Shown here: one piece after another, positions 1 to 16,166 of the stretch
How the letters are laid out: every line of letters starts with the position of its first letter
How positions within the stretch are numbered: the first letter of the stretch is position 1
NCBI GenBank assembly: GCA_041665365.1
Contig: JBAYIY010000002.1
Location: forward strand, 2,178 to 66,177
From: Patescibacteria group bacterium
GTDB lineage: Bacteria > Patescibacteriota > Patescibacteriia > UBA9570
Direction: 5' to 3'
Length of the DNA stretch: 64,000 nt
Made by a program: the position numbers and the translations under genes
Notes under the pieces: model-generated
The model's input: only the letters and a program-made list of their open reading frames with translations
Database searches by the model: none
Told to the model about the DNA's origin: nothing

Positions 1-930
1 TTTCCATTCATCTAAATTACTCGCGACCGTTATCGTTACTTCTTTAAGACCCGCTTTGTCTAACAGTTTCCTTGCTTGCACAGAACGCTTGTATAAATCA
101 CCACTGTCAATGGTGATGCCTTTTATTGAATTTTTCTTTCGCTTCAATTCACTAGCAACTTGGATAGCATGCTGTAATCCTCTATCAAAATTGTAGGTAT
201 CAACCATAAAATCCATCGTATTTGGAAAAATTTCTGCTGCCCGGCTCATCGCTGCCGTCTCGGTAGAAAAAGATTTGATCAAAGCATGATAGGTCTTTCT
301 GGAAGGATCACTAAACGGTAGATCATATTTCCTGCAGAAAGCCGGAATCATATTAGCACCATGCCCACCCGCAATATAAGTTGCCCGGCCGAATTTAAAA
401 GCAGATTCGTTAGATTGAGCTCGTAAACTGGCCGATGCAAGAAATTTCTTGTCTTTGGCTGCTATTACTCCTCTGATCACCTTTGATAAAAAAATGGTAT
501 TACTTGTAAAGGCGTTAATCAAGAACATCGTCATTAGATTTCCTTCAATGATCGGTGCGGTGATACGCACGACTGGCTCATCCGGAAAAAATACCGTGCC
601 CTCTGGCAAGGCATAGACATCTCCGGTGAAATGAAAGCCTCGCAGATACCGTGCAAAACGAGGAGTGATGATGTTATTTTTTTGTAAGTACCTTACTTCG
701 TCACCTGTGTACCGCCAATTCAGTATGCCACGCACTATTTCCTCTGTGCCTCCCATCAATAAAAAATTTCTGTTCTTCGGCAAGCTTCTGACAAAGAGAT
801 CAAATGTTGCAACCTGGTGCTCCATATTTGACTCAAGCCAGATTGAACCGGCGGTAAATATCTGAGGTAACTCAAAAAGATGGAGGTCAGAATGGGTAAA
901 ATATGGTGTTTGGGGAAATGGTTTAGTCAT
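1..930 (-). CDS. Nicotinate phosphoribosyltransferase (NAPRTase, PncB)-family protein. The start codon is at 928-930 and the 3' end runs off the window edge.
   Basis: Manual reverse-complement translation gives MTKPFPQTPYF...DEPVVRITAPIIEGNLMTMFLINAF...VDTYNFD...GITIDSGDL, which matches NAPRTase blocks. The start overlaps the upstream stop as TAATG. The canonical FGTRR/GTSN/GTMAHS motifs are diverged (FGRAT/GGHGAN/RKTYHA). Confidence 0.55.
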   Translation of the reverse strand, partial: MTKPFPQTPYFTHSDLHLFELPQIFTAGSIWLESNMEHQVATFDLFVRSLPKNRNFLLMGGTEEIVRGILNWRYTGDEVRYLQKNNIITPRFARYLRGFHFTGDVYALPEGTVFFPDEPVVRITAPIIEGNLMTMFLINAFTSNTIFLSKVIRGVIAAKDKKFLASASLRAQSNESAFKFGRATYIAGGHGANMIPAFCRKYDLPFSDPSRKTYHALIKSFSTETAAMSRAAEIFPNTMDFMVDTYNFDRGLQHAIQVASELKRKKNSIKGITIDSGDLYKRSVQARKLLDKAGLKEVTITVASNLDEWK

Positions 931-2234: not shown

Positions 2235-2256
2235 TTATTATTATTACGAAGTTGTA

Positions 2257-2976
2257 TTAAATAACTTGCCGAGCAACGTTGACGAATTTTTTTAATCGCT
2301 CAGTTTTTGGATTAATTAAAATATCACCAGTTCCCTCTTCCACAATACTACCCGCATCCAGAAAAATTACTTTGTCACTAATTTTACTTGCTAGGTGTAA
2401 CGCATGACTCACAATAACTATTCCAACTCCTCGGTTGGCAATCTGTTTAAGATGGGCAAGAATCAGATAAGATTGTTCGATATCTAACGCGGAAGTTACT
2501 TCGTCAAGTAAAAGGTAATTTGGTTTAAGGAGCAAAGCGCGTACCAGAGCCGCTCGCTGGCATTCTCCGATTGATACTTCGTTTGGGTAGCGCTCTAAAA
2601 ATGAATCCATCTGAAATAGATCGACCATTTCTGCAAAATGCTTTTCATTGATATTCTTGCGCAAAGGTAGCGTTAGATTTTGCCTAATAGTTAAATGCGG
2701 CCAAATGAAAAGTTGCTGAAAAACAATAGTCAAATTTGGATATGGAAATTTAATACATTCATCTTGTCGAATCGGAAATTGATAATTGTCTTCATCAATT
2801 TTCAATGATCCTGCATCCGGAAAATCAATTAAAGAAATGGCGCGCAAAAAAGTCGTTTTACCAGCCCCACTCGGACCAACAATAGAAATGATCTCACCAC
2901 TTTCCAAGGATAGGGAAACATTATTTAATATTTTCTTACCAGCTATTATCTTGGTGATATGAGTTGCGTGCATCAT
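2257..2976 (-). CDS. ABC transporter ATP-binding protein, polar amino-acid type
   Basis: Walker A GPSGAGKTT; ABC signature/Walker B LLLDEVTSALD; operon with permease and binding protein. Confidence 0.85.
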   Translation of the reverse strand: MMHATHITKIIAGKKILNNVSLSLESGEIISIVGPSGAGKTTFLRAISLIDFPDAGSLKIDEDNYQFPIRQDECIKFPYPNLTIVFQQLFIWPHLTIRQNLTLPLRKNINEKHFAEMVDLFQMDSFLERYPNEVSIGECQRAALVRALLLKPNYLLLDEVTSALDIEQSYLILAHLKQIANRGVGIVIVSHALHLASKISDKVIFLDAGSIVEEGTGDILINPKTERLKKFVNVARQVI

Positions 2977-2977
2977 A

Positions 2978-3646
2978 TTACTTCTCGGAATGATTTCTGG
3001 TATAAGTTTTTTTCAGCCAATAAGCCAGTACATTAAGTGGCAAACAAATAGCGATAAAAAATAAGGCCAGGGTTGTATAAATTTCGACTGGTTTGTAGAT
3101 CATGGAGTTGATTCTTTGAGCAACACGAAAAATCTCTTCAACAGAAATTAAACTGGCGAAAATTGTGGCTTGCAACATCGCCACTTGCAGAAAAAGCAAT
3201 TGCGGAATAACGGCACGCATCATCAACGGAAATTTAATTTTAGTAAATATTTCTTTTTCGCTTAGCCCACTGACTTTACCGGCAATAAAATACTGTTTCG
3301 GCAGTCCATCCAAACTATCTTTTATTATGGCTGCAACAAAAACAATATTAACAACCGAAAGACCAGCTGCTGCGGTAATAAATGGTTTGATGACAACTCC
3401 TAACATGGCTTGCAAGGGGAAGTGCAACCAAAACAAAATAACTAAAATTGGACTACTTGAGATTAGAAACCAAAACACTTTGAGCCAAGAGCCTACACCT
3501 TTTTTTTGATGTGCCCACCAGCCAAACAATACACCAAAAACTAAACCTGTCGTCCAAACAATTGCAACTAACGCCAAACTAACAAGGATGCCTGAGATGA
3601 GACCCTCCCGATATTGAATAATGATATGTGCGATCGTGTCAAACAT
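2978..3646 (-). CDS. Amino-acid ABC transporter permease
   Basis: Multi-TM hydrophobic protein between the binding protein and the ATPase; 1-nt spacing suggests translational coupling. Confidence 0.75.
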   Translation of the reverse strand: MFDTIAHIIIQYREGLISGILVSLALVAIVWTTGLVFGVLFGWWAHQKKGVGSWLKVFWFLISSSPILVILFWLHFPLQAMLGVVIKPFITAAAGLSVVNIVFVAAIIKDSLDGLPKQYFIAGKVSGLSEKEIFTKIKFPLMMRAVIPQLLFLQVAMLQATIFASLISVEEIFRVAQRINSMIYKPVEIYTTLALFFIAICLPLNVLAYWLKKTYTRNHSEK

Positions 3647-3651
3647 GTTCG

Positions 3652-4524
3652 CTATGGTACGGTATATGGTTTGACGACTGGATAAAAGGATCCTGGATAC
3701 TTTTCGTACTGATGTATTAATTCATTTATTTTCCCGTTATTCAATAGTTCTTCGAGCGCCGTATTCATCATTGACTCAAATCCAGCTTGATTTTTTGGTA
3801 TTCCCATTGTATTACCAAAAGATCGAATCGGATCATCTTTAGTTATATTTTTTACCGAACCCGGATTATTCGCCAAAAATTCTTCAGCAATAGCCGGCTG
3901 AACAAAAGTCACATCCGCTTTATGCGTTATGACATTAAGAAGTAATTGTGAGACAGGAGTATCTTGCGGCAACGAAATAACAGTTGCGTCAGGAAAATTT
4001 GATTGAGTGATAAAAGCCGACATTTCACCATCTATCGTCGCAACCGTAATATCTGGGTTATTGATATCGACTAGATCAGCAAAACGATTTTCATCTGGGC
4101 GTGTATACACACCAACCGCGCTGTAATAAAGCGGGATTGTAAAATCTATATTCTTTGCTCTGGCGGCATTAGGCCATAAGTCTGTCACGATCACATCGTA
4201 ACGACCAGCGTCTAATCCCTCTATCATTGTTCCCCAACCAGCCTCTTCAACCCAATTAATTTTGAGATCCAAATTTTCACCAGCCACCTCAAGTGCATCG
4301 TGAAAAATACCAGACAGCTCACCAGTATTTGGATCTTTGATCATGGCCGGTGGATCTACTACATAGCCAGCGCGAATTTCTCCTTTGTCCAATACGGTAG
4401 ACAAAAGATCGTCATTTTGACTGGTTCTATTTTTATCAGAGAACAAATTAACCCCAATGAAAGAGGTAATGAGGACTATCACCACAATCAGCAAAATTGA
4501 TTTATAATTGTTCAGGTTATACAT
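3652..4524 (-). CDS. Amino-acid ABC transporter substrate-binding protein, membrane-anchored
   Basis: N-terminal TM anchor followed by a periplasmic-binding-protein-like domain; first gene of the transporter operon. Confidence 0.7.
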   Translation of the reverse strand: MYNLNNYKSILLIVVIVLITSFIGVNLFSDKNRTSQNDDLLSTVLDKGEIRAGYVVDPPAMIKDPNTGELSGIFHDALEVAGENLDLKINWVEEAGWGTMIEGLDAGRYDVIVTDLWPNAARAKNIDFTIPLYYSAVGVYTRPDENRFADLVDINNPDITVATIDGEMSAFITQSNFPDATVISLPQDTPVSQLLLNVITHKADVTFVQPAIAEEFLANNPGSVKNITKDDPIRSFGNTMGIPKNQAGFESMMNTALEELLNNGKINELIHQYEKYPGSFYPVVKPYTVP

Positions 4525-4564
4525 ATTTGATTATTTAAAGTGTAAAGTAGTGCCAGATTTTGTG

Positions 4565-4710
4565 AAGGCCTTTTTCGCGACGGCGCAACGGCAAAAAACT
4601 GCAGTTTATTACGACAGAGTGCAACGACCTGCTTGTGGATAACATTTTTCAGCGACGGCTCACCTACGTTCCTAAGAAGGAACTTCGGGTGAGTAAACTC
4701 TAATGTTGGT
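4565..4710 (+). repeat. Intergenic two-box repeat element, copy A (box1 CGCGACGGCGCAACGGC; box2 TGTGGATAACATTTTTCAGCGACGGC; nested hairpin)
   Basis: About 90% identical to copy B. Contains the perfect DnaA-box nonamer TGTGGATAA and the hairpin CTCACC-tac-GTTCCT-aaga-AGGAAC-ttcg-GGTGAG. Confidence 0.7.
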
Positions 4711-4835
4711 CACTAACCCCACGTTTTAACGTGTGGGTTAGTTTGAGTTGGTTCTTCTGTCCACTATCTTTTTTCAGGGCTTTCATTTGTATTCATCTTT
4801 TCAGCGATCCATTTTTTGCAGCATTATTACAGCTG

Positions 4836-4865
4836 TTGACAAACAAAAAAGTTTTATGATATACT
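4836..4865 (+). promoter_or_regulatory. Near-consensus sigma70 promoter with extended -10
   Basis: TTGACA, 18-nt spacer, TGaTATACT. Confidence 0.5.
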
Positions 4866-4871
4866 TTTTTT

Positions 4872-5001
4872 ACTGAGCTTGTTAGGGTTTAGGCCCTCTC
4901 ACGGTTGAATACATAAAACCGTAAACAAGTCTCAGTAAATAACAAAACAAGTTATAATACAATCAATCCCCTTCTAAATCTCCAATGTGGAGTATTTTTT
5001 T
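4872..5001 (+). ncRNA. Candidate small RNA of about 130 nt, with its own sigma70-type promoter and a weak terminator
   Basis: TTGACA(4836-4841)-18 nt-TGaTATACT(4860-4865). The transcript has nested stems (gagCTTGTT...AACAAGtctc enclosing AGGGtttaggCCCT and ACGGTT...AACCGT). A 5-bp hairpin plus T7 lies at 4980-5001. There is no plus-strand ORF. Confidence 0.35.
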
Positions 5002-5014
5002 GTTTGATGTATTT

Positions 5015-5332
5015 TTAATATTTTACATTGACCATACGATATTGCCATTGAGAATTTGTATTCATTTGCTCCAGATGATTCGTTTCAAAAAATTCTTGCA
5101 AGGTATGTGATTTTTGTATAATCACAGGAGCCAATTTTAACAACCGAAAACGAATGTATTGATCTAGTTTTAATCTAGCCTTACCTTTTTTCTTAAATTT
5201 GAGATGTTCAATCCCCTTGGCATTGAAAGATACCGGCGTATGAAAGTAAGGACAATCTATTTGTCTAATAGTTTTATAAAAAGATTCTGCATCTGTTTTA
5301 GTTGATGCTAATTTTTCATCAGTTATTTCCAT
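5015..5332 (-). CDS. Hypothetical protein
   Basis: 105-aa ORF with no recognisable motifs. Confidence 0.4.
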   Translation of the reverse strand: MEITDEKLASTKTDAESFYKTIRQIDCPYFHTPVSFNAKGIEHLKFKKKGKARLKLDQYIRFRLLKLAPVIIQKSHTLQEFFETNHLEQMNTNSQWQYRMVNVKY

Positions 5333-5371
5333 TTATAAAATACTAAGTATAATATTTCGTTTTTACAAGAC

Positions 5372-5530
5372 CTTTTTCGCGACGGCGCAACGGCAAAAAA
5401 CCACACTTTATTATGACTGAGTGCAACGACTTGCTTGTGGATAACAATTTTTAGCGACGGCTCACCTACGTTCCTAAGAAGGAACTTCGGATGAGTAAAC
5501 TCTACTACGCTCGTAGGACAGAGCTTCGTA
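5372..5530 (+). repeat. Two-box repeat element, copy B
   Basis: Same architecture as copy A (box1 5377-5393; TGTGGATAA 5436-5444; hairpin). Confidence 0.7.
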
Positions 5531-5573
5531 GGAGCAGGCTCTAAAGCCAGTTAGTTAACAAGATGGTCTAGTA

Positions 5574-6473
5574 TTATTGTTTGTAAGTAACCACACTAAA
5601 CCCAGGCATATCATCAAAGAAAGAAACATCAGTTAGCTTCGCACGAGTATTCGTTGAACGTTGTGCAATACCGACTGATTGATTGAATGGATTACTGGTA
5701 ATGGTAATGTCAGCACCTGGCTGAAAATACTCTAGGAGTGGTTGGTCTGAAGCTGTGATAAAGATATCGGGAGTTTTAAGCATAATAGGTTGATCTAATG
5801 ATAACGTTTGGACAGTTTGGGTGTTTGGATCGTAGCTGAACCTAGCAAGTTCACGTTGTACTTGCACTGGTGGCATATTTTCAGATCCACTGGGTAACAG
5901 ATCATATAGTAACTTACTACGAACGCGAATGATGTATTGGTCGTGTGTTTTATCCCAATTACTATCCCAAAATGTATCAATGTAGGCTTCTGTGTTCCAA
6001 TCAAATTTTTGCGACAGGAGAGCCGTCACGTCAACACACGGTCCTAAAGTTTGGAAATCAAATGTGCTGATACAGTGAATTGAAGAATCGACTGGATTGT
6101 ATTCTAAAAAATCTTGCTGCGGTGAAAGTGATAAGTACTGGTACGTTCTATCAGCTGACTGCTCAATTAACTGGCTACCTTCTGGAGTTATGTAATAAAG
6201 ACCAGTGTCACCTACTAATAATTTTTGCGGTGACAAAAATTCTGTACTGGAGTCAGATTTGTAGGTAGTGTGCATCTTTCCATCTCCTGAAAATATATCC
6301 AACTTGTCATTACTATGAATCATAATTAGCGGCACACCATCATTCCATTGGATGGCAGACAAAGTGGCATTGTAGTTTGGTTGAGTAAGTCCTCCAAAAA
6401 AGTTTGATACCGTGGCTAAGATTATGAATAGATAGCTGATTAATGAAGGCATAATGTTATTACTTTTATACAT
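5574..6473 (-). CDS. Secreted hypothetical protein with an N-terminal signal/anchor
   Basis: Hydrophobic N-terminus MPSLISYLFIILATV; 299 aa. Confidence 0.5.
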   Translation of the reverse strand: MYKSNNIMPSLISYLFIILATVSNFFGGLTQPNYNATLSAIQWNDGVPLIMIHSNDKLDIFSGDGKMHTTYKSDSSTEFLSPQKLLVGDTGLYYITPEGSQLIEQSADRTYQYLSLSPQQDFLEYNPVDSSIHCISTFDFQTLGPCVDVTALLSQKFDWNTEAYIDTFWDSNWDKTHDQYIIRVRSKLLYDLLPSGSENMPPVQVQRELARFSYDPNTQTVQTLSLDQPIMLKTPDIFITASDQPLLEYFQPGADITITSNPFNQSVGIAQRSTNTRAKLTDVSFFDDMPGFSVVTYKQ

Positions 6474-6587
6474 CGTTTAATAAGGTATATACATACTAAT
6501 ACGATGCATACATTTTGTCCATAGTCCACAGCTACTTATCAAGACCATTTTGGAATTTTCTTTGATGCTTCTCAAAAAAATACAATG

Positions 6588-6665
6588 CCGGATAACATTT
6601 TTCAGCGACAGCTCACCTGCGTTCCTAAGAAGGAACTTCGGATGAGTAAACTCTACTACGCCACT
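6588..6665 (+). repeat. Partial repeat element, copy C (degenerate box2 plus hairpin)
   Basis: GCCGGATAACATTTTTCAGCGACAGCTCACCTGCGTTCCTAAGAAGGAACTTCGGATGAG. Confidence 0.6.
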
Positions 6666-6808
6666 TTTTCAAATATACAAAAACGAAAGAAGCTCTTAGT
6701 TAACACGATGTGTAGTCGCGTCAACGTTGAGCTTCGGCAGTACACAGACGACAGCTGGCGAACATTGCTGTTCAACAACCGATCTGGTCTGGTACTGAAT
6801 GTATCTGA

Positions 6809-9313
6809 CTAGCAGGGCGGTGCTGAGGTAGCGGTACCGAGATACCACCACTCGTAGTCGTCGTGACAACCGCCGGCGTAGTAGCCAGAGCAGCTGCCAT
6901 CACAACCTTCGTCCACCGTGCCGTCACAGTTGTTGTCGTTCCAGTCACCCCGTTCTGGTGCGCCCGAGTAGGTAGTTGCATCCCACCAGGCACAGTCGAA
7001 GGAGTCATCGTAGCCGTCGCCGTCCGAATCTGCCGCGCTGGAGCCGCAGACATAGGTTAGCGAACCGGTCGAGTAGTAACTTTCGTAGTCGTCGGTGCAG
7101 CCATCCCAGTAGGCGCCACCGCAACCGTAGTCACAGCTCTCGTCCGTGCTTCCATCACAATCGTTGTCGACCCAGTCGGCCAATTCAGGCGCACCGGGAT
7201 AGATGGACGCACTCCACCAACCACAATCGACAGTATCATCGTAACCGTCGCCGTCGTAGTCGCTGGCAGTGGGCGTACTGCAAGAGCTGCTCGACGCACA
7301 GTCGGAGTCTCCACAGTCCACTAGCCCATCCAGATCATTGTCCATGCCATCGGAACAGTAGAGTTCGGCGCAGGGCACATCGCCCCCAACGCAGTCATCA
7401 TCCGTTCCGTTGCCACAGATCTCTGGTGCTCCATAGTAGATGGCTGTGTTGCTGTCGTTGCAGTCATTTCCACCACAGCCCGTGGCCGTCTGGCCGTCAC
7501 CGTCGATGTCGCAGGAGGTATCGCTCTCGTCGGTGGTGTCACTCGTACTAGTCGTATCGTCCTCATCCATTGGATCGATCGCCATGCCGTTGAGTGATCG
7601 AACCTCTGTACTCGTCCGAACACCGAAGTTTCCGAACAGAATATGAGGCCGGCCGTAGGTTGAACTCAAACCAGTGATCAATTGAGACTGATCCACCTGC
7701 TCTTCGAAGCTGTTGCCGGCATTGCTCCGTGCCAGATACAGAGTTGTACCGTTGGAACGAATCAGATCGGCGTAGGCGTCGAGGTAGTCCAGAGGATAGA
7801 TGGTATAGTCACCATCCGTACCACCGACATCGGTACCCATCACTGCGATGGTGAAGGTACTCGTGCTGTTGTTATAGTGACCAGCTTCAATTTCCACACT
7901 GGAGTCACGTTCGTCGATGCGAATGATCTCATCGCTACCGTCACCATTAGTGTCGGCGACAACGAACTCATCCGTGGGCAATGCCCAACCAGTGCTGATG
8001 TTGGTCACGCTGCCAGAACTGCTCAGACGTTGCCAGGTCAGAGTGCTCCCCGAACCAGCGAAGGCTTCCGCCTCACCGTTGCCGTTGAAGTCGCCAACTA
8101 AGACGACACTACTGGTGGTTCCGAAGCTGGTGCTCCAGGTGACCGCGTCACCGAACCGACCGTTATCGCTGTCGTTGAGAAAGTACTTCCAAGTCAGAGT
8201 GCCGTCGGTGTTGGCGAAGACCAGAATCAGATCCGCGCGCCCATCTCCGTCCACATCATCCAAGAACGCTTTGACCGCTTCACCGGACGTCTTCTTCCAG
8301 CGGGTCTGAGTGTTGAGCTCTCCTTCCCCATTGGACAGGTAGACATTGGTGTAGGTGTAACCAGGCTTGATCCGCACTTGCACCAAGTCATCCCAGCCAT
8401 CGCTATTCATGTCTCCGGAGAGCCAGGACAGAATGGTGGCAGTAGAGCCAGTGTTGGTGTAGGAGAAGTAGTTACCGGACAGTGCAGTATCCTCACCCGA
8501 ACCCGTCACCTCGTAACCGTAGATGTCGAACTTGCCACTGCTGTTAGGTTCGACAGTCATGAGGTGAGTGGTGGTAGTAGTGGAGGTAGTGGCTGAGGAA
8601 GATCCGTCGTTTGTAGATTCGTAGTAGTTGCCTGCAACGTAATCCACAAACTGGATACCTTCCATTTCAACTCCATCAAGCTCACTGGTGTAGCTGTAGC
8701 CGCTGCCGTTGTACTTGATGGAGAAGTGCAGATGGGTACCAGTTGAATCTCCCGTCGTGCCAATCGCACCGAGAATTTCGCCCTGTGCCACGGTCTTGCC
8801 GATGTAGAGCGAAGACGGAATTGAATCCGCAGCGAGGTGGTAGTAGAGAGTGGTATATCCGTCACTGTGGTCGAGCTTGACGTAGCAAGCAAAATGACCT
8901 TCGCTCGCCTTGCCCTGAGTGCAGCCAGTCGTTACCATGTCAATGATCGTGCCAGCGGCGACTGCCACAGCAGGATCACCACTGTAGCGATCTTAGAAGT
9001 CGATGGCATAGTAGCCATTGTTGGCATCAGTATGCCATGAATCGATGCCACCATGTAGAATCTCGGCAACCACACCACCAGCTTCCACGTTGCACCGAAT
9101 GAGATCGCCAGGCTGCATCGGCATCTTGAGCTCGGGACCCGTATAGCCAGTGGCCTTGAGAGAAATACCCGATCGACCAGATGCACTGACATTGTCACCA
9201 CATTCAGCACCCGGCAGTGATGGATCACAATCGCCGAAGCTGCAGGCGACCAGATCGGCGAACCCGAACATCACGAAGAGGCTGATCATGAGGAGGCGGA
9301 TGTACCGTTCCAT
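6809..9313 (-). pseudogene. Secreted M23 (LytM-type) peptidase with FG-GAP repeats and a C-terminal Cys/Asp-rich repeat region. It is interrupted by an in-frame TAA at 8993-8995. It is compositionally foreign (GC-rich).
   Basis: ORFs 8993..9379 and 6809..8968 are in the same frame. The M23 block ...GYYAIDF*DRYSGDPAVAVAAGTIID...STGTHLHFS spans the stop. The region has RBS AGGAG and signal peptide MERYIRLLMISLFVMFGFADLVA. FG-GAP-like DVDGDGRADL/GDFNGNGEAEA/ADTNGDGSDEI repeats are followed by DxDxDG...CxxxDCDD...PGAPE..CDGxDNDCDG repeats. GC is about 55-60% against about 35% in the flanks. Confidence 0.55.
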
Positions 9314-9408
9314 TGGAAGACTCCTGGATTGTGAAGGAACGACTCTAGTCAAGAAGATTCCTGAGCTAGCAGAGCCCATCTAGTTGAAATAGATGGACCG
9401 GTGTTAAA

Positions 9409-10032
9409 TCAGAAATTAAATGTAATAGTAGATATAATCAATTCAACTTGTTTTTTATCTTCTTGTTTAGTGTTATTTGATAATATTGTAAAGTGTGCAT
9501 CTACTAAAGGATAATTATTAACCCAATACTCACTACTAATATCAGAAAAGAGTTCAGTTCCAGATTTTCCTCCTATTATGACCATTTTTTGTTCTAACCC
9601 CGGAACGCCATGGTCAATGTTTCTTTCGGGAAAAATTGTAAGCAGTATTTCCCCTTCCTTTGCTACCTGAACAACAGATACTTTTTTTCCTGGTAAAATC
9701 TTTGACACCAGATCAGTTTCTTGAACAGTTACATTAATGCCCACTGGATATTTAAAACTAAACCCATATTCATCATTCGTGTATGTTAACCAATCACTTG
9801 TATCCACTTCACTCACCTGTTCTGTATTAGTATTCTCATTGGTTACTACACCATTGATATTGTCATTTGAGTCCGTAACAACTACGTTAGTATTATCGTT
9901 TGTTGTATTTGTGTTTACCGTAACTGCATTGGTATTTATATTTGTTTTTTGAGTAGTTGTACAACTAGAGCCAGCTAAAAGTAGTGTGCAGGCAACTAAA
10001 GTGGTTAGTAAAGATAGTTTAGTTTTAAACAT
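9409..10032 (-). CDS. Lipoprotein, paralog A; Asn/Thr-rich linker followed by a conserved C-terminal domain
   Basis: MFKTKLSLLTTLVACTLLLAGSSC (lipobox-like). It shares ...DTSDW.TYTNDEYGFSFKYP with the 10405..11103 gene. Confidence 0.6.
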   Translation of the reverse strand: MFKTKLSLLTTLVACTLLLAGSSCTTTQKTNINTNAVTVNTNTTNDNTNVVVTDSNDNINGVVTNENTNTEQVSEVDTSDWLTYTNDEYGFSFKYPVGINVTVQETDLVSKILPGKKVSVVQVAKEGEILLTIFPERNIDHGVPGLEQKMVIIGGKSGTELFSDISSEYWVNNYPLVDAHFTILSNNTKQEDKKQVELIISTITFNF

Positions 10033-10099
10033 AAATTTAGAGTTAATAATAGTCTATATACTTGTACTATGGTCATAGAATGTTATTTAGTGCAATGAG

Positions 10100-10198
10100 T
10101 ATTCAGCGACGGCGTTAACTATAAAAAACTCAATTTGAGCCTAACATTAGATAAAATAAATAACAGGCGCATGTGGATAACATTTTTTAGCGACGGCT
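10100..10198 (+). repeat. Two-box repeat element, copy D (box1 10104-10114; TGTGGATAA 10172-10180), abutting a 5' stub of the M23 gene
   Basis: TTCAGCGACGGCGTTAAC...65 nt...ATGTGGATAACATTTTTTAGCGACGGCTC. Confidence 0.7.
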
Positions 10199-10300
10199 CT
10201 AAGATACTAATCATGAGGAGACGGATGTACCGTTCCATTGAGAGACTCCTGGATTGTGAAGGAACGACTCTAGTCAAGAATATTCCTGAGCTAGCTGTAC
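10199..10300 (-). repeat. Truncated duplicate (stub) of the M23-peptidase 5' region (promoter/RBS/first 14 codons), copy 1
   Basis: Near-identical to 9283-9372. It encodes MERYIRLLMISLF and then diverges exactly at the repeat-element boundary. Confidence 0.7.
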
Positions 10301-10404
10301 TCCTTCATATTCGTTAGAAATTGTATGAAGGAGTATGTGCTAAATCAAGAAGTAAAATTTCATTGTTCTAGTAAATTTCTGTGATTTATAAGTCATAAGG
10401 TCGT

Positions 10405-11103
10405 TTAAAATGTTAATGAATCTGCTACTTGTAAGAGGTCATCACTTATAGAAACATCTCCACTGATTGTTAAATTATTTTGTTTATCATTATAATTTGG
10501 TATCAATATATGTAGTGTATTAATTTTACTGCCATCAAAATCTGATATATCCTCAGTAACCTTAAGAGCAGGTTTGGTTCCGATAGTTATTTTCTCGACC
10601 GTCATTGTATTAGTTAGATTTCTATGTAGATCTTGCGCCAACTGATCATTTGTTTTTGTAAAATCAACTTTTGTGTAATCGAACCAACTGTTTGCATCAG
10701 ACGCATTTATAGTTTCTAAGCTATTACTTGATATCACCAAACGAGGGTTGCCAATTATGTCTTGCTTAAAATTATTTTCATCTCTAAAATTAATTGTCAA
10801 AAGAAATGGCACAGTATCACCTATCGAAACTTGCACGCTGCCCCACTCTTTTGGATACTTAAAACTAAACCCATATTCATCATTGGTATAAGTTTGCCAA
10901 TCACTAGTATCAATACCACTAACCTGCTCTACATTAGTATTGTCATTACTAACATTATCATTGGTGTTAGTTACAGCTTCAGTATTCACGTTATCGTTAA
11001 TAGTATTTGTATTTGTTTTTTGAGTAGTTGTACAACTAGAACCGACTAAAAGTAGTGTGCTGGCAGCGAAGGTGATTAGTAAAGCTAGTTTAGTTTGAAT
11101 CAT
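10405..11103 (-). CDS. Lipoprotein, paralog B
   Basis: MIQTKLALLITFAASTLLLVGSSCTTTQKTN..., paralogous to 9409..10032. Start chosen at MIQTKL (11103). The upstream promoter cassette is conserved. Confidence 0.6.
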   Translation of the reverse strand: MIQTKLALLITFAASTLLLVGSSCTTTQKTNTNTINDNVNTEAVTNTNDNVSNDNTNVEQVSGIDTSDWQTYTNDEYGFSFKYPKEWGSVQVSIGDTVPFLLTINFRDENNFKQDIIGNPRLVISSNSLETINASDANSWFDYTKVDFTKTNDQLAQDLHRNLTNTMTVEKITIGTKPALKVTEDISDFDGSKINTLHILIPNYNDKQNNLTISGDVSISDDLLQVADSLTF

Positions 11104-11177
11104 AAATTTAGAATTAAATAAATATAGTCTATATACCTGTACTATGGTCATAGAATGTTAGTTAGTGCAATAAGTAA

Positions 11178-11276
11178 CTAACGACGGCGCTAACACTAAA
11201 AAGCTCAATTTTAGCCTAACATTAGGTAAAATAAAATACAAATGTGTGTGGATAACATTTTTCAGCGACGGCTCAA
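11178..11276 (+). repeat. Two-box repeat element, copy E (TGTGGATAA 11247-11255), abutting M23 5' stub copy 2
   Basis: AACGACGGCGCTAAC...TGTGTGGATAACATTTTTCAGCGACGGCTCA. Confidence 0.7.
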
Positions 11277-11375
11277 AGAGGCTGATCATGAGGAGGCGGA
11301 TGTACCGTTCCATTGGAAGACTCCTGGATTGTGAAGGAACGACTCTAGTCAAGAAGATTCCTGAGCTAGCTGTAC
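11277..11375 (-). repeat. Truncated duplicate (stub) of the M23-peptidase 5' region, copy 2
   Basis: Identical to 9287-9372 over about 90 nt, including the AGGAG RBS and codons 1-14. Confidence 0.7.
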
Positions 11376-11509
11376 TCCTTCATATTCATTATAAATTGTA
11401 TGAAGGAGTATGTGCTAAATCAAGAAGTAAAACCTATTAGACACACAATTTTGTTTTAATGATTATATGATTTAATTAGTTATTGATTTATTATTCTGTC
11501 TAATATTAT

Positions 11510-12265
11510 TTATAATGGTTTAGGAATTCCACGTATGATTTTTCTATTAACAGCAATGGAATGATTTTGAATATAAACAAGTAATTGATCATTAGACATA
11601 TACGTTAACTCGTCAATCTCATTAATATCTGGAATGAAATATAACTCACCATCGCTTTCGACGGCCATAATAACCCGTCCTATTAATCGTTGTTGTAAAT
11701 CCTCATATAGCTCCTCATGACCACTAATAATACTACTACAGGTAGGCCCTTCTCCAAAATCTAGGCATGCTAAAGCCTGAATATCTAAATTAGATGCCGG
11801 TGTAACACGAAAATCACCAACAGCTGCTGCTTCCAAAAAAGCAGAATATATGTTTTTTGAACTCAACTTTTGTTTAAAACCGTCTGCTATCCAGTAATAC
11901 CTGTTTTTTACTTTATAAAACCCATCTGGTAAATATCTATTGATTATCGGTAAACCGTTGGCAGTATTTATCCAATACATTTTACCAGAGTGTTGTGCGC
12001 GTAAAATAACTTTTCCTTCTAAGATATTAAGTATGGGATCACAAAGTCTACCTAGCGGAGTTGTGACAGCATCACTGGGTACATTTTCGTTTGCAGTGTA
12101 ACAATGACTATTCAATAATTCTTTATAAACAGATTCACTAACACCAATAATATTAGGGGTAAGATTCACCACGGTCATAGCGTTTGTTAAAGACGGTAGT
12201 ACCAACGTAAGTACTAATAAACTAACAACTATAGTAGAGATAGTTATGTGTTTAGATCTAGTCAT
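11510..12265 (-). CDS. Secreted hypothetical protein
   Basis: Signal-peptide-like N-terminus MTRSKHITISTIVVSLLVLTLVLPSLTNA. It shares the same upstream promoter cassette as the lipoprotein paralogs. Confidence 0.5.
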   Translation of the reverse strand: MTRSKHITISTIVVSLLVLTLVLPSLTNAMTVVNLTPNIIGVSESVYKELLNSHCYTANENVPSDAVTTPLGRLCDPILNILEGKVILRAQHSGKMYWINTANGLPIINRYLPDGFYKVKNRYYWIADGFKQKLSSKNIYSAFLEAAAVGDFRVTPASNLDIQALACLDFGEGPTCSSIISGHEELYEDLQQRLIGRVIMAVESDGELYFIPDINEIDELTYMSNDQLLVYIQNHSIAVNRKIIRGIPKPL

Positions 12266-12407
12266 AAATTTAGAGTTAATAATAGTCTATATACTTGTAT
12301 ATATGGTCATAGAATGTTAGTTAGCGCAATAAGTATCCGGCGACGGCTCAATTGTCTATCATTACCCCCCACGTTTTAACGTATGCCCGCCTGCCGATAG
12401 GCAGGGG

Positions 12408-12992
12408 TTATTTTTTTGTGGTGTGGTCGTCTACTTCATGTAAGGCTATACCTCGTTCCTGAAAAATTCTATCTCTAATGATGAGACCTAAAATTGGATA
12501 AATCTCAAGCATGTTCATACCAATAGAAAAAGCGTGAGTTTTTATCTCATTTTGTTCGTCAAGCGTGAATATTTTATCAAAATTATTTCCAGCTACATCT
12601 AGTGCTACTGTTTGAATGTCGTAAGGATTCGTGGGAGCCTTACTTTCGACTGCTTGTTTAATATCCGTCCAATGATTGTTTACTTTTACTTCAGCCGATA
12701 TGGCTTGAGCAATTTCTGCTCCTTTGGTGGTTAAACTAATTGGGCTATGGGATTTAATGGTACTTAAGTGTGCTTGATAAAGTAGATCTGAAGTAGCCTG
12801 AATTTTTGCTATATTTGAATTTATTGCATCAATTTTTACATCAAATTTGTCACTCTTTCCCTCAAAATCTTTATATGCCTTCACCCAACCACCACTTTTA
12901 TAAGCTAGCCAAAAAGTTAGTATTAAAATAAGAACAAGCACGAATACGGCACTATTTAACTGTTGAATTAAAGCTAGAAATATTGCTTCCAT
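12408..12992 (-). CDS. Membrane-anchored hypothetical protein
   Basis: N-terminal TM segment AVFVLVLILILTFWLAY. Confidence 0.45.
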   Translation of the reverse strand: MEAIFLALIQQLNSAVFVLVLILILTFWLAYKSGGWVKAYKDFEGKSDKFDVKIDAINSNIAKIQATSDLLYQAHLSTIKSHSPISLTTKGAEIAQAISAEVKVNNHWTDIKQAVESKAPTNPYDIQTVALDVAGNNFDKIFTLDEQNEIKTHAFSIGMNMLEIYPILGLIIRDRIFQERGIALHEVDDHTTKK

Positions 12993-13025
12993 AAATATTA
13001 GTATATCATTTTTGTAACTAAATTG

Positions 13026-13529
13026 CTACCCAGCGAATGGTTCTAAACTCAAAATATTTTTTGCTTCCTGGGGTGAAAACACTTTTTTATCTTTGAGTAA
13101 ATTTACCACCGCCACTGTTTTCTTATCTTCCTTCCGTAAAATGTTGATGATATTACCTTCCATGGTACTAAGTCTAATATCCAAATAAGACTTAGTAACC
13201 ATCTGGGTTTTAAACTCAGCTAAATCAATTTTTGTGGCCATGCTGGACTCAATAGTATCAAAACGTTTATCGATGTCAGCAAAACGCTTATCTATATCCA
13301 TGAATCGTTTATTGATATCAACAAAATGTTTATCAATATTTACAAAATGATCATCAATACCAATAAATCTTTGTTCATTTTGAATGGACATATTGGTTAC
13401 TGCTGTCATGAACTCCTGGAGGGTTGTTTGAATATTATCCACGCTGGTTTGAATATTATCCACGCTGGTTTTAACTCCCTCAAGAGTTACTTTATTTGTA
13501 TGGGGTGTTTTTGTCATAGAATTGTGCAT
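13026..13529 (-). CDS. Hypothetical coiled-coil protein with tandem heptad repeats
   Basis: Protein has GIDDHFV NIDKHFV DINKRFM DIDKRFA DIDKRFD and TSVDNIQ x2. These are encoded by imperfect 21-bp DNA tandem repeats at about 13270-13390. Confidence 0.5.
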   Translation of the reverse strand: MHNSMTKTPHTNKVTLEGVKTSVDNIQTSVDNIQTTLQEFMTAVTNMSIQNEQRFIGIDDHFVNIDKHFVDINKRFMDIDKRFADIDKRFDTIESSMATKIDLAEFKTQMVTKSYLDIRLSTMEGNIINILRKEDKKTVAVVNLLKDKKVFSPQEAKNILSLEPFAG

Positions 13530-13704
13530 GTGATACTAGCATTATTAATAAATATTTTCAATTTAGCGCTTTCGCTGCCCATCGTGATCAAATATAGCTT
13601 GAGGCATGAGTTATATTTGCAGCACGATGGGGCATTGCTTGGGCGTCTTGGTCAACCAATGCACACAGCGAAAGACTGAGATCATTTTAGAGAAATAAAC
13701 TTTA

Positions 13705-13837
13705 TACACAAGGGCTTTTCCGCGACGGCGCAAATACAAAAAATCAGTAAAATCACAAAATTATCCAAATTAATTGTTAATTATATAAAAAAATACCTTG
13801 TGTATAACTTTTTTTAGCGACGGCGCTACACTTGCAT
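13705..13837 (+). repeat. Two-box repeat element, copy F, overlapping the promoter region of the asparaginase-like operon
   Basis: CCGCGACGGCGCAAA ...70 nt... TTGTGTATAACTTTTTTTAGCGACGGCGCTACAC followed by TTGCAT (-35-like) and RBS AAGGA. Confidence 0.6.
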
Positions 13838-13867
13838 TATTTTTGAAAATAGTTAAGGATACATGAC

Positions 13868-14770
13868 ATGCGTGTTTTAGCTATCTACACAGGTGGTCTA
13901 CCCGGCAAAAATATAGTTGAACAATTACAACATTATTTTGAATTACAATTAGTGGCCACGGTGGATATTCATCTGTTTTCCAGTATTACCGGCGGTGATG
14001 TTCCCTATTCATTAAGTAGTGATCTTACCCAATATATTTACGATCATTATAATGACTACGATGGCTTTGTGGTTATTCATAGTATTGATAATGTTATCTA
14101 CAGCGCTAATTTAACCGCCTTCCAATTTAGTAATTTAGGTAAACCGATTGTTTTTACCGGTGCCACTTTATCAGAAGACTTTTTCTCTTTTCCGGGTCAT
14201 TTCTCCAATACTGAGCAATCGATGTATCGCGAAATGAGTTTGCGCACTAGTTTAGTTACCGCCGTCCAGTTAGCCACGCAAAACACCTCCGATGTTTCTA
14301 TTACCTATGGTTCACGCATTGTGAAGGCAGTGCGGGCTTGGGAAAATTTCACCACTTACAATGAATTGGATTTAGCTTCGATCCGGTTTGGTATCGAAGT
14401 AACAACGGCTGCTAGACCACGCAATGATCAACCACCCATTTTACGCTTAGGGTTTGACACTAATGTTTACATGGTGCCACGCCAACCTGAGGTTATCATC
14501 CCAACACCCAATACCTATCGTGCTATTTTGATGTATGCCCATCAAGATCGGGCGCTACCCAGCCAATTTAATATGCCAACTGATACTCCAGTTTTCTTGT
14601 TAGGCGGCTTAGGACATCAGAAGTTACCAAACAATGTGTTTGCCTTACCGCCGGTCACTCCGGTTACTGCCCTGAGTAAACTGATGGTGGGCTGCAAACA
14701 TTTTCCGACCACACCAGAACTAGTGGATTATATGCAGCATAATATTAACGGCGAAGGTGGTATTGTATGA
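13868..14770 (+). CDS. L-asparaginase-fold protein with substituted catalytic threonines (probable pseudo-enzyme)
   Basis: MRVLAIYTGGLPGK...YDGFVVIHSIDNVIYSANL...GKPIVFTGA aligns to asparaginase type I blocks. TGGTIA is replaced by TGGLPG and HGTDTM by HSIDNV. Confidence 0.55.
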   Translation: MRVLAIYTGGLPGKNIVEQLQHYFELQLVATVDIHLFSSITGGDVPYSLSSDLTQYIYDHYNDYDGFVVIHSIDNVIYSANLTAFQFSNLGKPIVFTGATLSEDFFSFPGHFSNTEQSMYREMSLRTSLVTAVQLATQNTSDVSITYGSRIVKAVRAWENFTTYNELDLASIRFGIEVTTAARPRNDQPPILRLGFDTNVYMVPRQPEVIIPTPNTYRAILMYAHQDRALPSQFNMPTDTPVFLLGGLGHQKLPNNVFALPPVTPVTALSKLMVGCKHFPTTPELVDYMQHNINGEGGIV

Positions 14771-15309
14771 ACATTTACCTGGTAAACAACGCCCCCACCA
14801 ATATTGTCAGTTTGTTGCAACACAAAAATGTCAATATTTGGTCACGGACAACGGGTTTACCCAGTGTGATTACTGGCTTCTCCTGGAACGCTCTAGAACG
14901 AGTTGATGCGATTATTTTAGAAATTTCTTACCCATCAGATGAATTGCATTATATTCTGGCTCAAGCGATTGTTTTACAACGTCCCACGTTATGTTTATAT
15001 CCAAAAAATCGCGAGCCCCGTGAAATGTTACTACACTTACAAAAACCTAGTGTACCGAAATCAGTTGTCGCACGTAGTTACACTACCACTACCATCAGTG
15101 AAGTGATCGGTAAATTCCTACATAGTATCGATCATACTGTACAACTGGATCAAACCCCCAATATAAAATTTACTTTACGCTTAACTCCGGCCATTTCACA
15201 TTATCTAACTTGGCTAACTGAATTTAAAAATGTGAACAAAGCTGACTATTTAAGACAATTATTAAAAGATACGGCCGAGAAGGATAATGATTATCAGAAA
15301 TTAATGTAG
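14767..15309 (+). CDS. Hypothetical protein, translationally coupled to the asparaginase-like gene
   Basis: ATGA overlap with the upstream gene; 180 aa. Confidence 0.45.
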   Translation: MNIYLVNNAPTNIVSLLQHKNVNIWSRTTGLPSVITGFSWNALERVDAIILEISYPSDELHYILAQAIVLQRPTLCLYPKNREPREMLLHLQKPSVPKSVVARSYTTTTISEVIGKFLHSIDHTVQLDQTPNIKFTLRLTPAISHYLTWLTEFKNVNKADYLRQLLKDTAEKDNDYQKLM

Positions 15310-15340
15310 AAATTTAATTAATGTCTAGACTTATCCACCA

Positions 15341-15368
15341 TTGACACCATCTGTCAGTGTGCTAATAT
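15341..15368 (+). promoter_or_regulatory. Sigma70-type promoter
   Basis: TTGACA-16 nt-TAATAT. Confidence 0.45.
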
Positions 15369-15476
15369 GCCCGTAGGAAAACTGAGGCGTCCAAAATCTA
15401 GATAACACAAATAAGGAATTAATTTCTCTTGTGCTTATCTCTGGACACCTCAGTTTTCTTATAGGGACGTTTTTCT
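15369..15476 (+). ncRNA. Candidate structured RNA: long, near-perfect hairpin of about 105 nt downstream of the promoter, ending in a T-run
   Basis: GAAAACTGAGGCGTCC pairs with GGACACCTCAGTTTTC (15/16). Inner AGATAACACAA pairs with TTGTGCTTATCT. Apical loop is ATAAGGAATTAATTTCTC; the hairpin is followed by TTTTTC. Confidence 0.3.
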
Positions 15477-15650
15477 GGCACAGCCTCAATTTATTGAAGT
15501 TGTGCTGGAAAACACGCCTCTAGCTACCACTCCGATTATCCCCTTGTGTGGTAGTAATACAATTTATGGTGAAACCGAACACTTAGGCGGCGCTTTTTTC
15601 TAAGTGACTAAGGTAAACTTTTTACCCCAATTCGGATAACACCAGTCTGC

Positions 15651-15693
15651 TATCTCTATGGTAGATGTCATACACTCATTTACCATAGAGATA
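15651..15693 (+). promoter_or_regulatory. Perfect 13-bp inverted repeat (candidate operator) upstream of ssb
   Basis: TATCTCTATGGTA-N17-TACCATAGAGATA, about 80 nt upstream of the ssb start. Confidence 0.35.
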
Positions 15694-15773
15694 ATAGATG
15701 TGCCAGATGTACAAACGCGTTTCATCATCTACAGTAGCTTATCTTAATATTGTCTTAAACTAACATTAGTCTT

Positions 15774-16166
15774 ATGGATTTGAATCGCGTATCATTAATT
15801 GGTAATTTAGCTATGGAACCAGAACACAAAACTTTACCATCTGGTGCCAGTATTACTCGCACTAGTCTGGCTACTAGTTTTGCCTGGAAAGATAGTAAAA
15901 CTAAAGAGTTAAAAGAAAAAACCGATTTCCACACCATCATTGGTTGGAATAAACTAGGTGAACGAATTCACCAGTATCTAAAAAAAGGCGACCGCATTTA
16001 CGTGGAAGGCCGATTGGATCATCATTCTTACGAAGGAAAGGATGGCATCACGAAATATTTTACCAACATTATTGCCGAACAGTTAATTATGTTAGGCAAA
16101 GGTAAACGTGAAGTCACCACCACCGATGAACCAATTGTGACCGAACCGGTGACGGAACCGTTTTAA
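15774..16166 (+). CDS. ssb: Single-stranded DNA-binding protein
   Basis: MDLNRVSLIGNLAMEPE...IGWNKLGERIHQYLKKGDRIYVEGRL; acidic C-terminal ...TEPF tail. Confidence 0.85.
   Translation: MDLNRVSLIGNLAMEPEHKTLPSGASITRTSLATSFAWKDSKTKELKEKTDFHTIIGWNKLGERIHQYLKKGDRIYVEGRLDHHSYEGKDGITKYFTNIIAEQLIMLGKGKREVTTTDEPIVTEPVTEPF

Follow-up and report, generated by a model that had tools for sequence, protein, structure and literature searches.

Between 4.5 and 13.9 kb of the window, by which we mean the whole 64,000-nt stretch of DNA that was analyzed and in whose numbering all positions are given, a two-box repeat recurs in one intergenic region after another, and a further copy with inverted cores lies at 63077-63192. 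The question raised by this locus is what the repeat does: whether it controls the genes that it precedes, recombines, acts through the DnaA-box-like nonamer that it carries, works as RNA, or is left over from duplication. The source of the window is a metagenomic Candidatus Kerfeldbacteria bacterium, of the candidate phyla radiation (CPR); metagenome-assembled genomes of Candidatus Kerfeldbacteria encode a methionine aminopeptidase 71-74% identical to its own. CPR bacteria are ultra-small, mostly uncultivated and host-dependent, and have very few recognizable regulators. To our knowledge, almost nothing is known of transcription control in this radiation. Our reading of the sequence, held with moderate confidence, is that the repeats are a paired-operator and promoter module that defines a regulon of this lineage. 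Most likely, the ~130-bp module would supply the binding sites for a regulator, specific to this lineage, that acts on a new small RNA and on genes for envelope and secreted proteins. The original prediction had named a regulon operator, a mobile promoter cassette and a recombination hot-spot as candidate explanations; the operator is the best fit of the three, with the module standing at orthologous promoters and a fixed 10-nt gap between box and -35 hexamer.

The repeat family in the window is real and far above chance. The core CGACGGC has 15 intergenic copies there, which make up six complete two-box units (A1, A2, B1, B2, C and D) and two partial ones (A3 and B3). At three mismatches or fewer, the 26-mer of box2 has five matches, versus none in 100 dinucleotide-preserving shuffles; GCGACGGCG has seven matches versus 0.12 expected; and GCGCCGTCGC, with at most one mismatch, has 14 versus 1.1 expected, 13 of them family members. 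The eight copies of the original prediction all stand, but they do not share one identical architecture, since A3 and B3 are partial and module D is without the nonamer. Nor are box1 and box2 two different boxes, as had been proposed. Both have the core (A/C)GCGACGGC(G/T)C, and the unit is a direct repeat of a single near-palindromic motif, (A)GCGACGGCGC(T), also written AGCGaCGgCGCT, whose copies lie 69-95 nt apart. On the + strand, the box1/box2 cores are found at 4578/4653 (A1), 5380/5455 (A2), 10107/10191 (B1), 11182/11266 (B2) and 13723/13818 (C); those of D are inverted, at 63191/63122. Four perfect copies of the nonamer TGTGGATAA had been claimed for the window and are present, at 4634, 5436, 10172 and 11247; the nonamer of C is one-off (TGTGTATAA at 13799), and that of A3 is degraded to GCCGGATAA.

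The anatomy of the module emerges from 17 standard modules, each oriented along the gene that it precedes; D and the modules of L010 and L105 stand outside this set (relatives' loci are labeled L010, L105, L122 and L141-L155). The unit is indeed directional, as had been suggested, and is co-oriented with the gene it precedes, but box2 is not its promoter-proximal end: the gene served lies on the box1 side. In the direction of transcription, the consensus reads (T)TTyAGCGCCGTCGCt, 8-10 nt of A-rich sequence, TTATCCACA, ~45 nt usually ending in TTTTTTG, (T)GCGCCGTCGC, exactly 10 nt (nAAAAnnnnn), TTGnnn (TTC in two modules), 16-18 nt, and TAnnnT or CAnnnT; the promoters were assigned from the conserved position of these predicted -35 and -10 hexamers. 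The gap between the proximal box and the -35 is 10 nt in 16 of the 17, and the exception, L144, has 21 nt, one extra helical turn. Likewise, the box-to-box spacing is 74-76 nt in 11 modules, 84-86 nt in five and 95 nt in one, or about 7, 8 and 9 helical turns. The nonamer TTATCCACA is perfect in 15 of the 17 and lies 8-10 nt from the distal box, and the T-run beside the proximal box is conserved across modules. Aligned modules keep the boxes, the nonamer, the TT(G) of the -35 and the -10, whereas column identity in the spacers averages 38-61%; the box sequence hardly varies, and only A3 has a changed core. The module has three of the traits expected of an operator: a short, partly palindromic intergenic motif, a fixed place relative to a predicted core promoter, and a phylogenetic footprint.

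That footprint extends well beyond the window. The module was found in at least 10 other contigs, from different samples and species, so that the copies are not confined to one locus; complete modules number 20 in 11 distinct related contigs and occur at orthologous as well as other promoters. Through neighboring proteins we reached L122, L143-L145, L148-L152 and L154/L155. A module lies next to the small RNA/asparaginase-like locus in nine further genomes (L122, L143, L144/L145, L148, L149, L150, L151/L152, L154/L155), and the asparaginase-like proteins of five searched loci are 38-53% identical to that of the window. Module C, which stands at this locus in the window, is the ancestral copy and the one conserved at orthologous loci. 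In L150 a module also precedes the transporter binding-protein gene, whose product is 72% identical; in L010 and L105 one precedes homologues of the window's PsbP-like genes, with the nonamer inverted and differently placed. Overall, the proteins that neighbor conserved modules in relatives are only 34-81% identical. Within its 20.9 kb, L150, which comes from a 491-kb contig, carries five complete modules. Each points the same way as the gene that follows it, and the genes are those for the small RNA, an M23 peptidase, a RicinB-M23 protein, a HisKA_7TM protein and the transporter binding protein, which is orthologous to the A1 target. L143-L145 have one module per 14-17 kb, L146 has a degenerate one, and the D region is identical in two further samples (L141 and L142).

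Moreover, every box is intergenic. Across 156 kb from the clade, 86% of which is open reading frame (ORF) when gene calls are approximated by ORFs of at least 90 aa, we counted 35 copies of the 10-mer GCGACGGC[GT]C; 29 of the 35 lie outside this proxy, and the remaining six are in ORFs judged spurious by gene calls or orthology. An exact scan of 185,579 species genomes with the 23-mer of box2 gave no match, the flanks of close relatives being slightly different. A two-box scan of metagenomes gave at least 119 matches, and among the matches listed two were real (L010 and L105) and the others were chance matches in high-GC coding sequence. A scan of viral contigs gave one chance match, inside a tail-fiber-like gene, and plasmid and phage collections gave no match to the element. 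Rfam 15 at the gathering threshold recovered only a tRNA-Gln from the window, leaving both the element and the small RNA unmatched, and at E <= 1 it gave no relevant match for the small RNA, hairpin or unit in 4400-14000 or in six related loci. We also found no published description of the motif or of regulation in Kerfeldbacteria, in agreement with the earlier statement that no described element of this sequence was known.

All of the window modules but the divergent promoter described below face the - strand. Module A1 (4539-4661) has its distal box at 4652-4661 (GAGCCGTCGC), the nonamer at 4634-4642, a T-run, and the proximal box at 4577-4586 (GCGCCGTCGC), followed by a 10-nt gap, the predicted -35 TTCACA (4561-4566), a 16-nt spacer and the predicted -10 TACACT (4539-4544). 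Downstream, with its start codon at 4524, lies the gene for the solute-binding protein of an ABC transporter operon, and an orthologous module stands before the same gene in L150. Module A2 (5340-5463) is 91% identical to A1 over 145 nt, with the distal box at 5454-5463, the nonamer at 5436-5444, the proximal box at 5379-5388, and a predicted promoter composed of -35 TTGTAA (5363-5368), a 17-nt spacer and -10 TAGTAT (5340-5345). It precedes a 105-aa ORF (5015-5332), the mRNA of which is probably leaderless because the ATG comes only 7 nt after the -10. The partial copy A3 (6587-6661) retains a distal box with the core CGACAGC (6606-6612), the degraded nonamer and a hairpin, and the proximal box is absent. 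Directly beyond the distal box of A1, A2 and A3 (4658-4694, 5460-5496 and 6611-6647) is the nested hairpin CTCACC..GTTCCT-AAGA-AGGAAC..GGGTGAG. This feature of the original prediction is real, with folding energies of -15.6 to -19.8 kcal/mol and z-scores of -2.7 to -4.6; in A1 the + strand gives -19.8 kcal/mol (z -4.6) and the - strand -17.7 (z -3.6). On the - strand the hairpin lies downstream of the preceding gene.

The B modules precede genes for PsbP-like secreted proteins. B1 (10066-10199) has the distal box at 10190-10199, the nonamer at 10172-10180, the proximal box at 10106-10115 (ACGCCGTCGC), a predicted -35 TTGCAC at 10090-10095 and a -10-like CATAGT at 10066-10071, upstream of the gene at 9409-10032. 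B2 (11141-11274) has the distal box at 11265-11274, the nonamer at 11247-11255, the proximal box at 11181-11190 (GCGCCGTCGT) and a predicted -35 TTGCAC at 11165-11170; because of its homology with B1, the PsbP-like gene that follows probably starts at 11103, not at 11151. B3 (12300-12349), upstream of the gene at 11510-12265, has a single box at 12340-12349 (GAGCCGTCGC), a 10-nt gap and a predicted -35 TTGCGC at 12324-12329. Module C (13684-13826) comprises the distal box (13817-13826), the nonamer variant TTATACACA (13799-13807) and the proximal box (13722-13731), and then a 10-nt gap, a predicted -35 TTGTGT (13706-13711), a 16-nt spacer and a predicted -10 TAAAAT (13684-13689). Five nucleotides beyond its distal box, a divergent, rightward promoter on the + strand (13832-13870) is predicted for the asparaginase-like operon, with TTGCAT at 13832-13837, a 17-nt spacer, AAGGAT at 13855-13860 and the ATG at 13868. 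L122, L143 and L144 keep this arrangement, with TTGCAT or TTGCCA, a 17-nt spacer, nAGGAT, and then 6-7 nt to the ATG; the AGGA could instead be a ribosome-binding site. Module D (63077-63192) has boxes at 63183-63192 and 63114-63123, 69 nt apart with inverted cores, and after the second box come a 9-nt gap, a predicted -35 TTGTGT (63099-63104), a 16-nt spacer and a predicted -10 TAGTGT (63077-63082). It precedes the gene for a 458-aa seven-transmembrane (7TM) protein (start 63047). The distances originally given to the TTGCAC of the PsbP-like genes, to the TTGCAT 5 nt after box2 and, at ~70 nt from box2, to the start of the 7TM gene are borne out.

Several observations on transcript ends belong beside these modules. 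The predicted -10 hexamers end 6-7 nt before the ATG both at ORF 5015-5332 (start 5332) and at the asparaginase-like gene (13868), and other genes have a clear AGGAG ribosome-binding site, e.g., the gene starting at 9313; leaderless mRNAs may be common in this organism. Terminator-like hairpins on the + strand occur at 4718-4737 and 12390-12405, where all genes are on the - strand, both with CCCCACGTTTTAACGT just past a box; short transcripts, antisense or rightward, could end there or be marked by them.

Among the putative targets of the module, a structured small RNA is the one conserved most deeply. In the window its gene (13566-13677, - strand) would be transcribed from the predicted promoter of module C. 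The RNA has a closing helix, CUUUCGCUG/CAGCGAAAG (CUUUCGC/GCGAAAG), a conserved GGACGCC loop region and a CCCACCG/CGGUGGG hairpin, and its 3' hairpin shows compensatory changes among orthologues. It is 110-200 nt long and conserved in nine genomes, begins ~7 nt past the module promoter and is always directly downstream of it; orthologues are found at L122 8475-8637, L143 2566-2715, L144 5601-5777, L148 796-952, L149 1456-1614, L150 6111-6311 and L154 8348-8495. An RNA on the opposite strand was considered and rejected: that side has no conserved promoter, and the summed minimum free energies favor the module-forward strand (-523 versus -479 kcal/mol).

Which protein might read the boxes? The asparaginase-like operon beside module C (13868-16166, + strand) encodes the asparaginase-like protein, a 180-aa protein (14767-15309, + strand) and SSB, and the second of these is a candidate. 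It belongs to no Pfam family. Its N-terminal 120 residues match DNPH1/Rcl, of the nucleoside 2-deoxyribosyltransferase fold (profile E = 1.4e-5; Foldseek E = 1e-4). Its C-terminus, PNIKFTLRLTPA..YL.WL....NKADY.R.LL, is modeled as an extended strand and two helices (predicted local distance difference test score, 88), and the top Foldseek matches to this model are nearly all ribbon-helix-helix proteins (MatP, ParD, Arc, TacA, CopG and NikA), with TM-scores of 0.5-0.7 and weak E values of 0.4-3. Pfam matches of the C-terminus are weak as well (RHH_3, E 0.099; NikA-like, E 0.059), and hhalign places it in the correct register versus NikR (P 0.0023) and CopG (P 0.023). The predicted DNA-reading strand IKFTLRL is invariant in the clade, which matches the invariant core of the box, and the gene lies within ~1.5 kb of a module at every locus that holds it. 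An exhaustive hidden Markov model search recovered 712 clusters at 50% identity with the same two-domain layout and conserved DNA-reading residues; a fusion of deoxyribosyltransferase and ribbon-helix-helix domains was not found described in the literature. Gene neighborhood and plausibility make the link, and we propose only tentatively that the 180-aa protein is the box-binding regulator. If it is, the circuit would be responsive to a ligand, nucleotide-like in character, and autoregulated. It is conceivable, if doubtful, that such a nucleotide-sensing DNPH1-like/ribbon-helix-helix regulator couples the expression of surface proteins and the small RNA to the supply of scavenged nucleotides through the boxes. 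In the distant relative L147, an overlapping palindromic double box, GCCGTCGCGACGGCGCT, lies at 5320-5345, directly downstream of the homologue of the candidate regulator.

The mechanism that we envisage is as follows. The operator would consist of two copies of a 10-12-bp near-palindromic site, AGCGCCGTCGCT in the direction of transcription, ~75, 85 or 95 bp apart. The promoter-proximal copy would sit exactly 10 bp upstream of the -35 of a sigma-70-type promoter, centered near -51, and the distal copy would be followed, after 8-10 bp, by TTATCCACA, and the segment that separates the boxes would often contain a putative terminator of the preceding gene. A DNA-binding protein, dimeric or tetrameric, could then occupy both boxes on one face of the helix, perhaps assisted by a second protein, DnaA or MraZ, on the nonamer, and together they would set the activity of the adjacent promoter. 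Because the proximal box lies just upstream of the core promoter and does not overlap it, we slightly favor activation or recruitment over repression. The regulated set would include secreted PsbP-like and M23-peptidase proteins, the amino-acid ABC transporter, 7TM sensor-like membrane proteins and the small RNA, and, at module C, also the divergent operon of the asparaginase-like protein, candidate regulator and SSB.

Several results weigh against this operator interpretation. A generic scan for sigma-70 promoters and terminators recovered only the A1 promoter, with no enrichment over shuffles, so that the assignment of the promoters rests on their conserved position. Nor is the geometry uniform: only 5-7 nt separate the box from the -35 at the asparaginase-like promoter, in D the gap is 9 nt with an inverted core, and the spacings of D (69 nt) and of L010 and L105 (91 nt) are out of helical phase. 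The asymmetric center (ACGG) is strictly conserved and the boxes are in direct orientation, unlike a simple symmetric dimer site. As for the regulator, the statistical case for a ribbon-helix-helix domain is weak (Foldseek E 0.4-3, Pfam E 0.06-0.1, hhalign P 0.002-0.02), and the protein family is far wider than the known range of the motif. In L147, L150 and L154 the regulator operon has no module upstream, the module lying downstream of the operon, and autoregulation is therefore not general. Finally, the 20.9 kb of L153, which is more distantly related and has TrmB regulators, contain no boxes.

The explanations that compete with a regulon start from the locus itself. Flanked by two conserved operons, the 4.5-13.9 kb stretch is variable and active in recombination, and differs in length and content among relatives. 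Tandem duplication has copied B1, B2 and B3 along with their PsbP-like genes (B1 and B2 share 300 nt at 89% identity), and A1, A2 and A3 share the unit and the nested hairpin. Copies of the 5' end of the lipoprotein gene that starts at 9313 (first 13 codons and 57 nt upstream; source 9276-9370; 93% and 100% identity) abut the distal box of B1 (10201-10295, - strand) and lie next to B2 (11276-11370). units of types A and B are nearly identical along a 30-mer whose end coincides with the box, and then diverge; modules of one genome are more alike than those of different genomes; and B3, whose box combines the left flank of box1 with the right flank of box2, looks like the outcome of a deletion between two direct boxes and is exactly what such a deletion would leave. 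The abutting fragments, the shared 30-mer, the likeness within genomes and B3, together with the variability of the region from SSB to the transporter operon among relatives, would suit a model of recombination or mobile cassettes in which the 10-bp boxes are crossover sites, site-specific or of short homology, for the exchange or deletion of promoter/terminator units and 5' gene fragments. We nonetheless regard that model as fairly unlikely. No terminal inverted repeats or variable target-site duplications are reported for the units, which tells against an element derived from an insertion sequence or a miniature inverted-repeat transposable element (MITE), and the window ORFs that were scanned contain no transposase, integrase or recombinase domain. 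Homology between paralogous copies runs past the unit by varying lengths, which points to segmental duplication; the modules keep stable positions at orthologous promoters despite 34-81% protein identity; the exact 10-nt gap to the -35 is a transcriptional, not a recombinational, constraint; and the strains of L144 and L145 part within sequence that encodes a signal peptide rather than at a box. The high copy number at 4.5-13.9 kb is the product of local duplication of promoter-bearing intergenic units, not of transposition, and the mobile promoter cassette of the original prediction survives in that limited sense alone; its recombination hot-spot has two junctions and one box-to-box deletion on its side and the strain breakpoint of the relatives against it. 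A stronger version, in which the boxes are the crossover sites of an unrecognized, integron-like cassette system without a known integrase that shuffles promoter/terminator units and 5' signal-peptide fragments among the surface-protein genes of an episymbiotic CPR bacterium, would explain both the B3 deletion and the 5' fragments at the distal boxes of B1 and B2, but we find it very unlikely. Duplication might also have left nothing more than functionless remnants in one variable locus, as the copying of B1-B3 and A1-A3 with their flanking genes or hairpins, and the single module per 14-17 kb of L143-L145, could be taken to say. This is extremely improbable, and the cross-genome conservation refutes it: the motif occurs in at least 10 other contigs, at orthologous and non-orthologous promoters, and the boxes are near-invariant while the spacers diverge.

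Two further alternatives put the weight on other parts of the unit. The nonamer TTATCCACA matches the DnaA-box consensus, as had been noted, but this is one of two equally good readings, for it resembles putative MraZ boxes equally well. In Mollicutes the MraZ box is AAAGTG[T/G], and TGGGN direct repeats also lie upstream of mraZ (PMC8475190). The direct repeats upstream of mraZ in the present lineage (AAAGTGG, GTGGGGATAAC and, in L154, TGTGGATAAC) fit the published box, and GTGGATAAC is common to the module nonamer and to the repeats of the window, L143 and L154. The putative MraZ arrays are at 21735-21800 of the window (- strand, upstream of mraZ at 21279-21710), at 11130-11190 of L143 and at 205-260 of L154. 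One might then see the nonamer as the core of the element, with DnaA providing cell-cycle-coupled transcription or titration, or with MraZ in its place, and the GC-rich boxes as accessory. The near-perfect conservation of the nonamer at its fixed distance from the distal box, the excess of one-mismatch DnaA boxes in the window (41 versus 22 expected), the position of the most conserved copy beside the ssb operon and the likeness to the mraZ repeats all favor such a view, which we still judge unlikely: the nonamer is absent from D and inverted and differently placed in L010 and L105, and the GC-rich box, of which there are two, shows at least equal conservation and is the part locked to the -35. 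Moreover, DnaA titration sites and MraZ operators are arrays, the latter of at least three direct repeats, AAAGTG[T/G] or GTGGG-like, at ~10-12 bp spacing, and each module has a single nonamer. The earlier conclusion that the repeats are not an origin is sound, since beyond the consensus match there is neither a box cluster nor a change of sign in GC skew; the cumulative skew falls almost monotonically over the whole window, without inversion, and no dnaA or dnaN lies near the modules, whose neighbors are ssb, the asparaginase-like gene and secreted-protein genes. The other alternative is an RNA-level element, the unit being transcribed as the 3' end of the upstream gene and serving as terminator, 3' untranslated structure or small RNA, with the boxes in RNA structure. 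L150 provides its best case, since the inter-box segments of its modules M2-M4 fold into a clean hairpin with a 9-bp stem and a U6 tail, and changes between the copies are compensatory; the conserved T-run beside the proximal box and the strong hairpin beyond the distal box of A1-A3 would also fit. In the window, however, the inter-box segments retain only the T-run and fold no better than shuffles (z +0.3 to +2), the boxes are direct and cannot pair with each other, a box alone gives a 4-bp stem, and Rfam has no match. The exact spacing to the -35 and the conservation of the box in either core orientation (D) point instead to recognition as DNA, and a role in RNA seems quite unlikely.

Other identities for the element were tried and rejected. 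An oriC was dismissed for its one box per unit and lack of a GC-skew switch. An integron attC site fails on the direct repeats and the absence of an integrase; GCGCAAC and GCGTTAAC, beside the boxes, do not fit RYYYAAC paired with GTTRRRY. Repetitive extragenic palindromes and their mosaic elements (REP/BIME) and MITEs were set aside as well, the unit being nonpalindromic and having neither inverted termini nor target duplications. A sigma-54 promoter was rejected as the TGGCAC of A1 lacks the -12 GC and is not conserved, an ECF-type (extracytoplasmic function) promoter with the box as -35 or -10 for its incompatible spacing, and a T7-like promoter for want of real similarity. With a stem of only 4 bp, the box is no terminator hairpin. 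Only C has an internal 26-nt inverted repeat, and an invertible promoter between its arms was discarded as the repeat is not kept in orthologues. A second leftward promoter with TTATCC as the -35 was rejected because -10-like hexamers occur only in AT-rich copies.

Among known systems, the paired-operator module proposed here is closest to paired or auxiliary operators (lac O1-O3 at 92 bp, gal, deo, and the NikR tetramer that bridges half-sites). Like these, it has two pseudo-palindromic sites on roughly the same helical face, one of them beside the core promoter, and the 11-bp insertion in L144 preserves the phase. It differs in that its sites are direct repeats with an asymmetric center, in that the proximal one lies near -51 and not over the promoter, and in that the stretch between them carries another conserved site and often a putative terminator; its binding protein is a candidate only. 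Ribbon-helix-helix operators (CopG, Arc, the MetJ metboxes AGACGTCT, NikR and omega) are likewise short, GC-containing, pseudo-symmetric and multi-copy, but the boxes are 75-95 bp apart rather than adjacent, and it is neighborhood that ties protein to site. The candidate regulator resembles the corresponding proteins in its strand-helix-helix C-terminus, with K/T/R on the DNA-reading strand, and in a ligand domain joined as in NikR, whereas its N-terminal ligand domain, of the DNPH1/nucleoside 2-deoxyribosyltransferase fold, has no Pfam model. DnaA boxes outside oriC (Escherichia coli datA/DARS, Bacillus subtilis clusters) share the consensus TTATCCACA, cross-genome conservation and, for one copy, a place by the replication gene ssb; in contrast to those clusters, each module has one box, always paired with an unrelated GC-rich box and equally MraZ-like. 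MraZ operators, too, share GTGGATAAC, but have 3-5 direct repeats spaced by ~10-12 bp where the module nonamer is single. The promoter-carrying repeats (Neisseria Correia, ERIC, pneumococcal BOX/RUP, REP/BIME) offer a ~130-bp unit in many intergenic regions, with an outward promoter, sometimes a terminator, and copies closer within genomes than between them. The module departs from them in having no inverted termini, target duplications or palindromic unit, in its orthologously stable positions, and in conservation limited to the two 10-bp boxes and the nonamer.

For a CPR lineage, the module would offer a testable regulatory unit with a defined operator, rigid promoter geometry and candidate target genes, most of which encode transport proteins and surface or secreted proteins, through which the bacterium is likely to meet its host. 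Should the regulator assignment be true, it would give a function to a widespread uncharacterized family. Module, small RNA and regulator could all be tested in vitro or in E. coli without cultivation of the organism. The element is not a new kind of genetic object, and its broader impact is therefore moderate.

The surroundings of the modules add some minor observations. The inter-operon stretch, which is bounded by the amino-acid ABC transporter operon (930-4524, its first gene encoding the solute-binding protein) and the asparaginase-like operon, encodes secreted or hypothetical proteins, including three tandem PsbP-like paralogues and the product of a high-GC lipoprotein gene. The latter (6809-9313, - strand) has a GC content of 49% versus ~38%, was probably acquired horizontally, and encodes M23 peptidase, FG-GAP and MopE-like metal-binding repeats; codon 107 is its only in-frame stop, which makes it either a pseudogene or the site of a sequencing error. 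In the long noncoding stretch between A1 and ORF 5015-5332, positions 4786-4817 match 63693-63724 over 32 nt at 88% identity and represent an isolated duplicate of the first part of the response-regulator gene at 63.7 kb, its 5' end. A perfect hairpin with a 12-bp stem (TACTCCTTCATA ... TATGAAGGAGTA; z-score -8.8), with no U-run, lies downstream of each PsbP-like gene at 10298-10335 and 11373-11410, and may be a Rho-independent-like or RNA-stability element of the lineage. The mraZ-upstream arrays of the lineage (AAAGTGG, GTGGGGATAAC and AAGTGTATAAG, spaced by ~11-12 nt) themselves resemble DnaA boxes. Lastly, the strains of L144 and L145 are 99.6% identical downstream, and fully divergent upstream, of a point in the signal-peptide coding region of a lipoprotein gene (~4374 in L144, ~4155 in L145), which suggests that the bodies of surface-protein genes are replaced behind a conserved 5' end.

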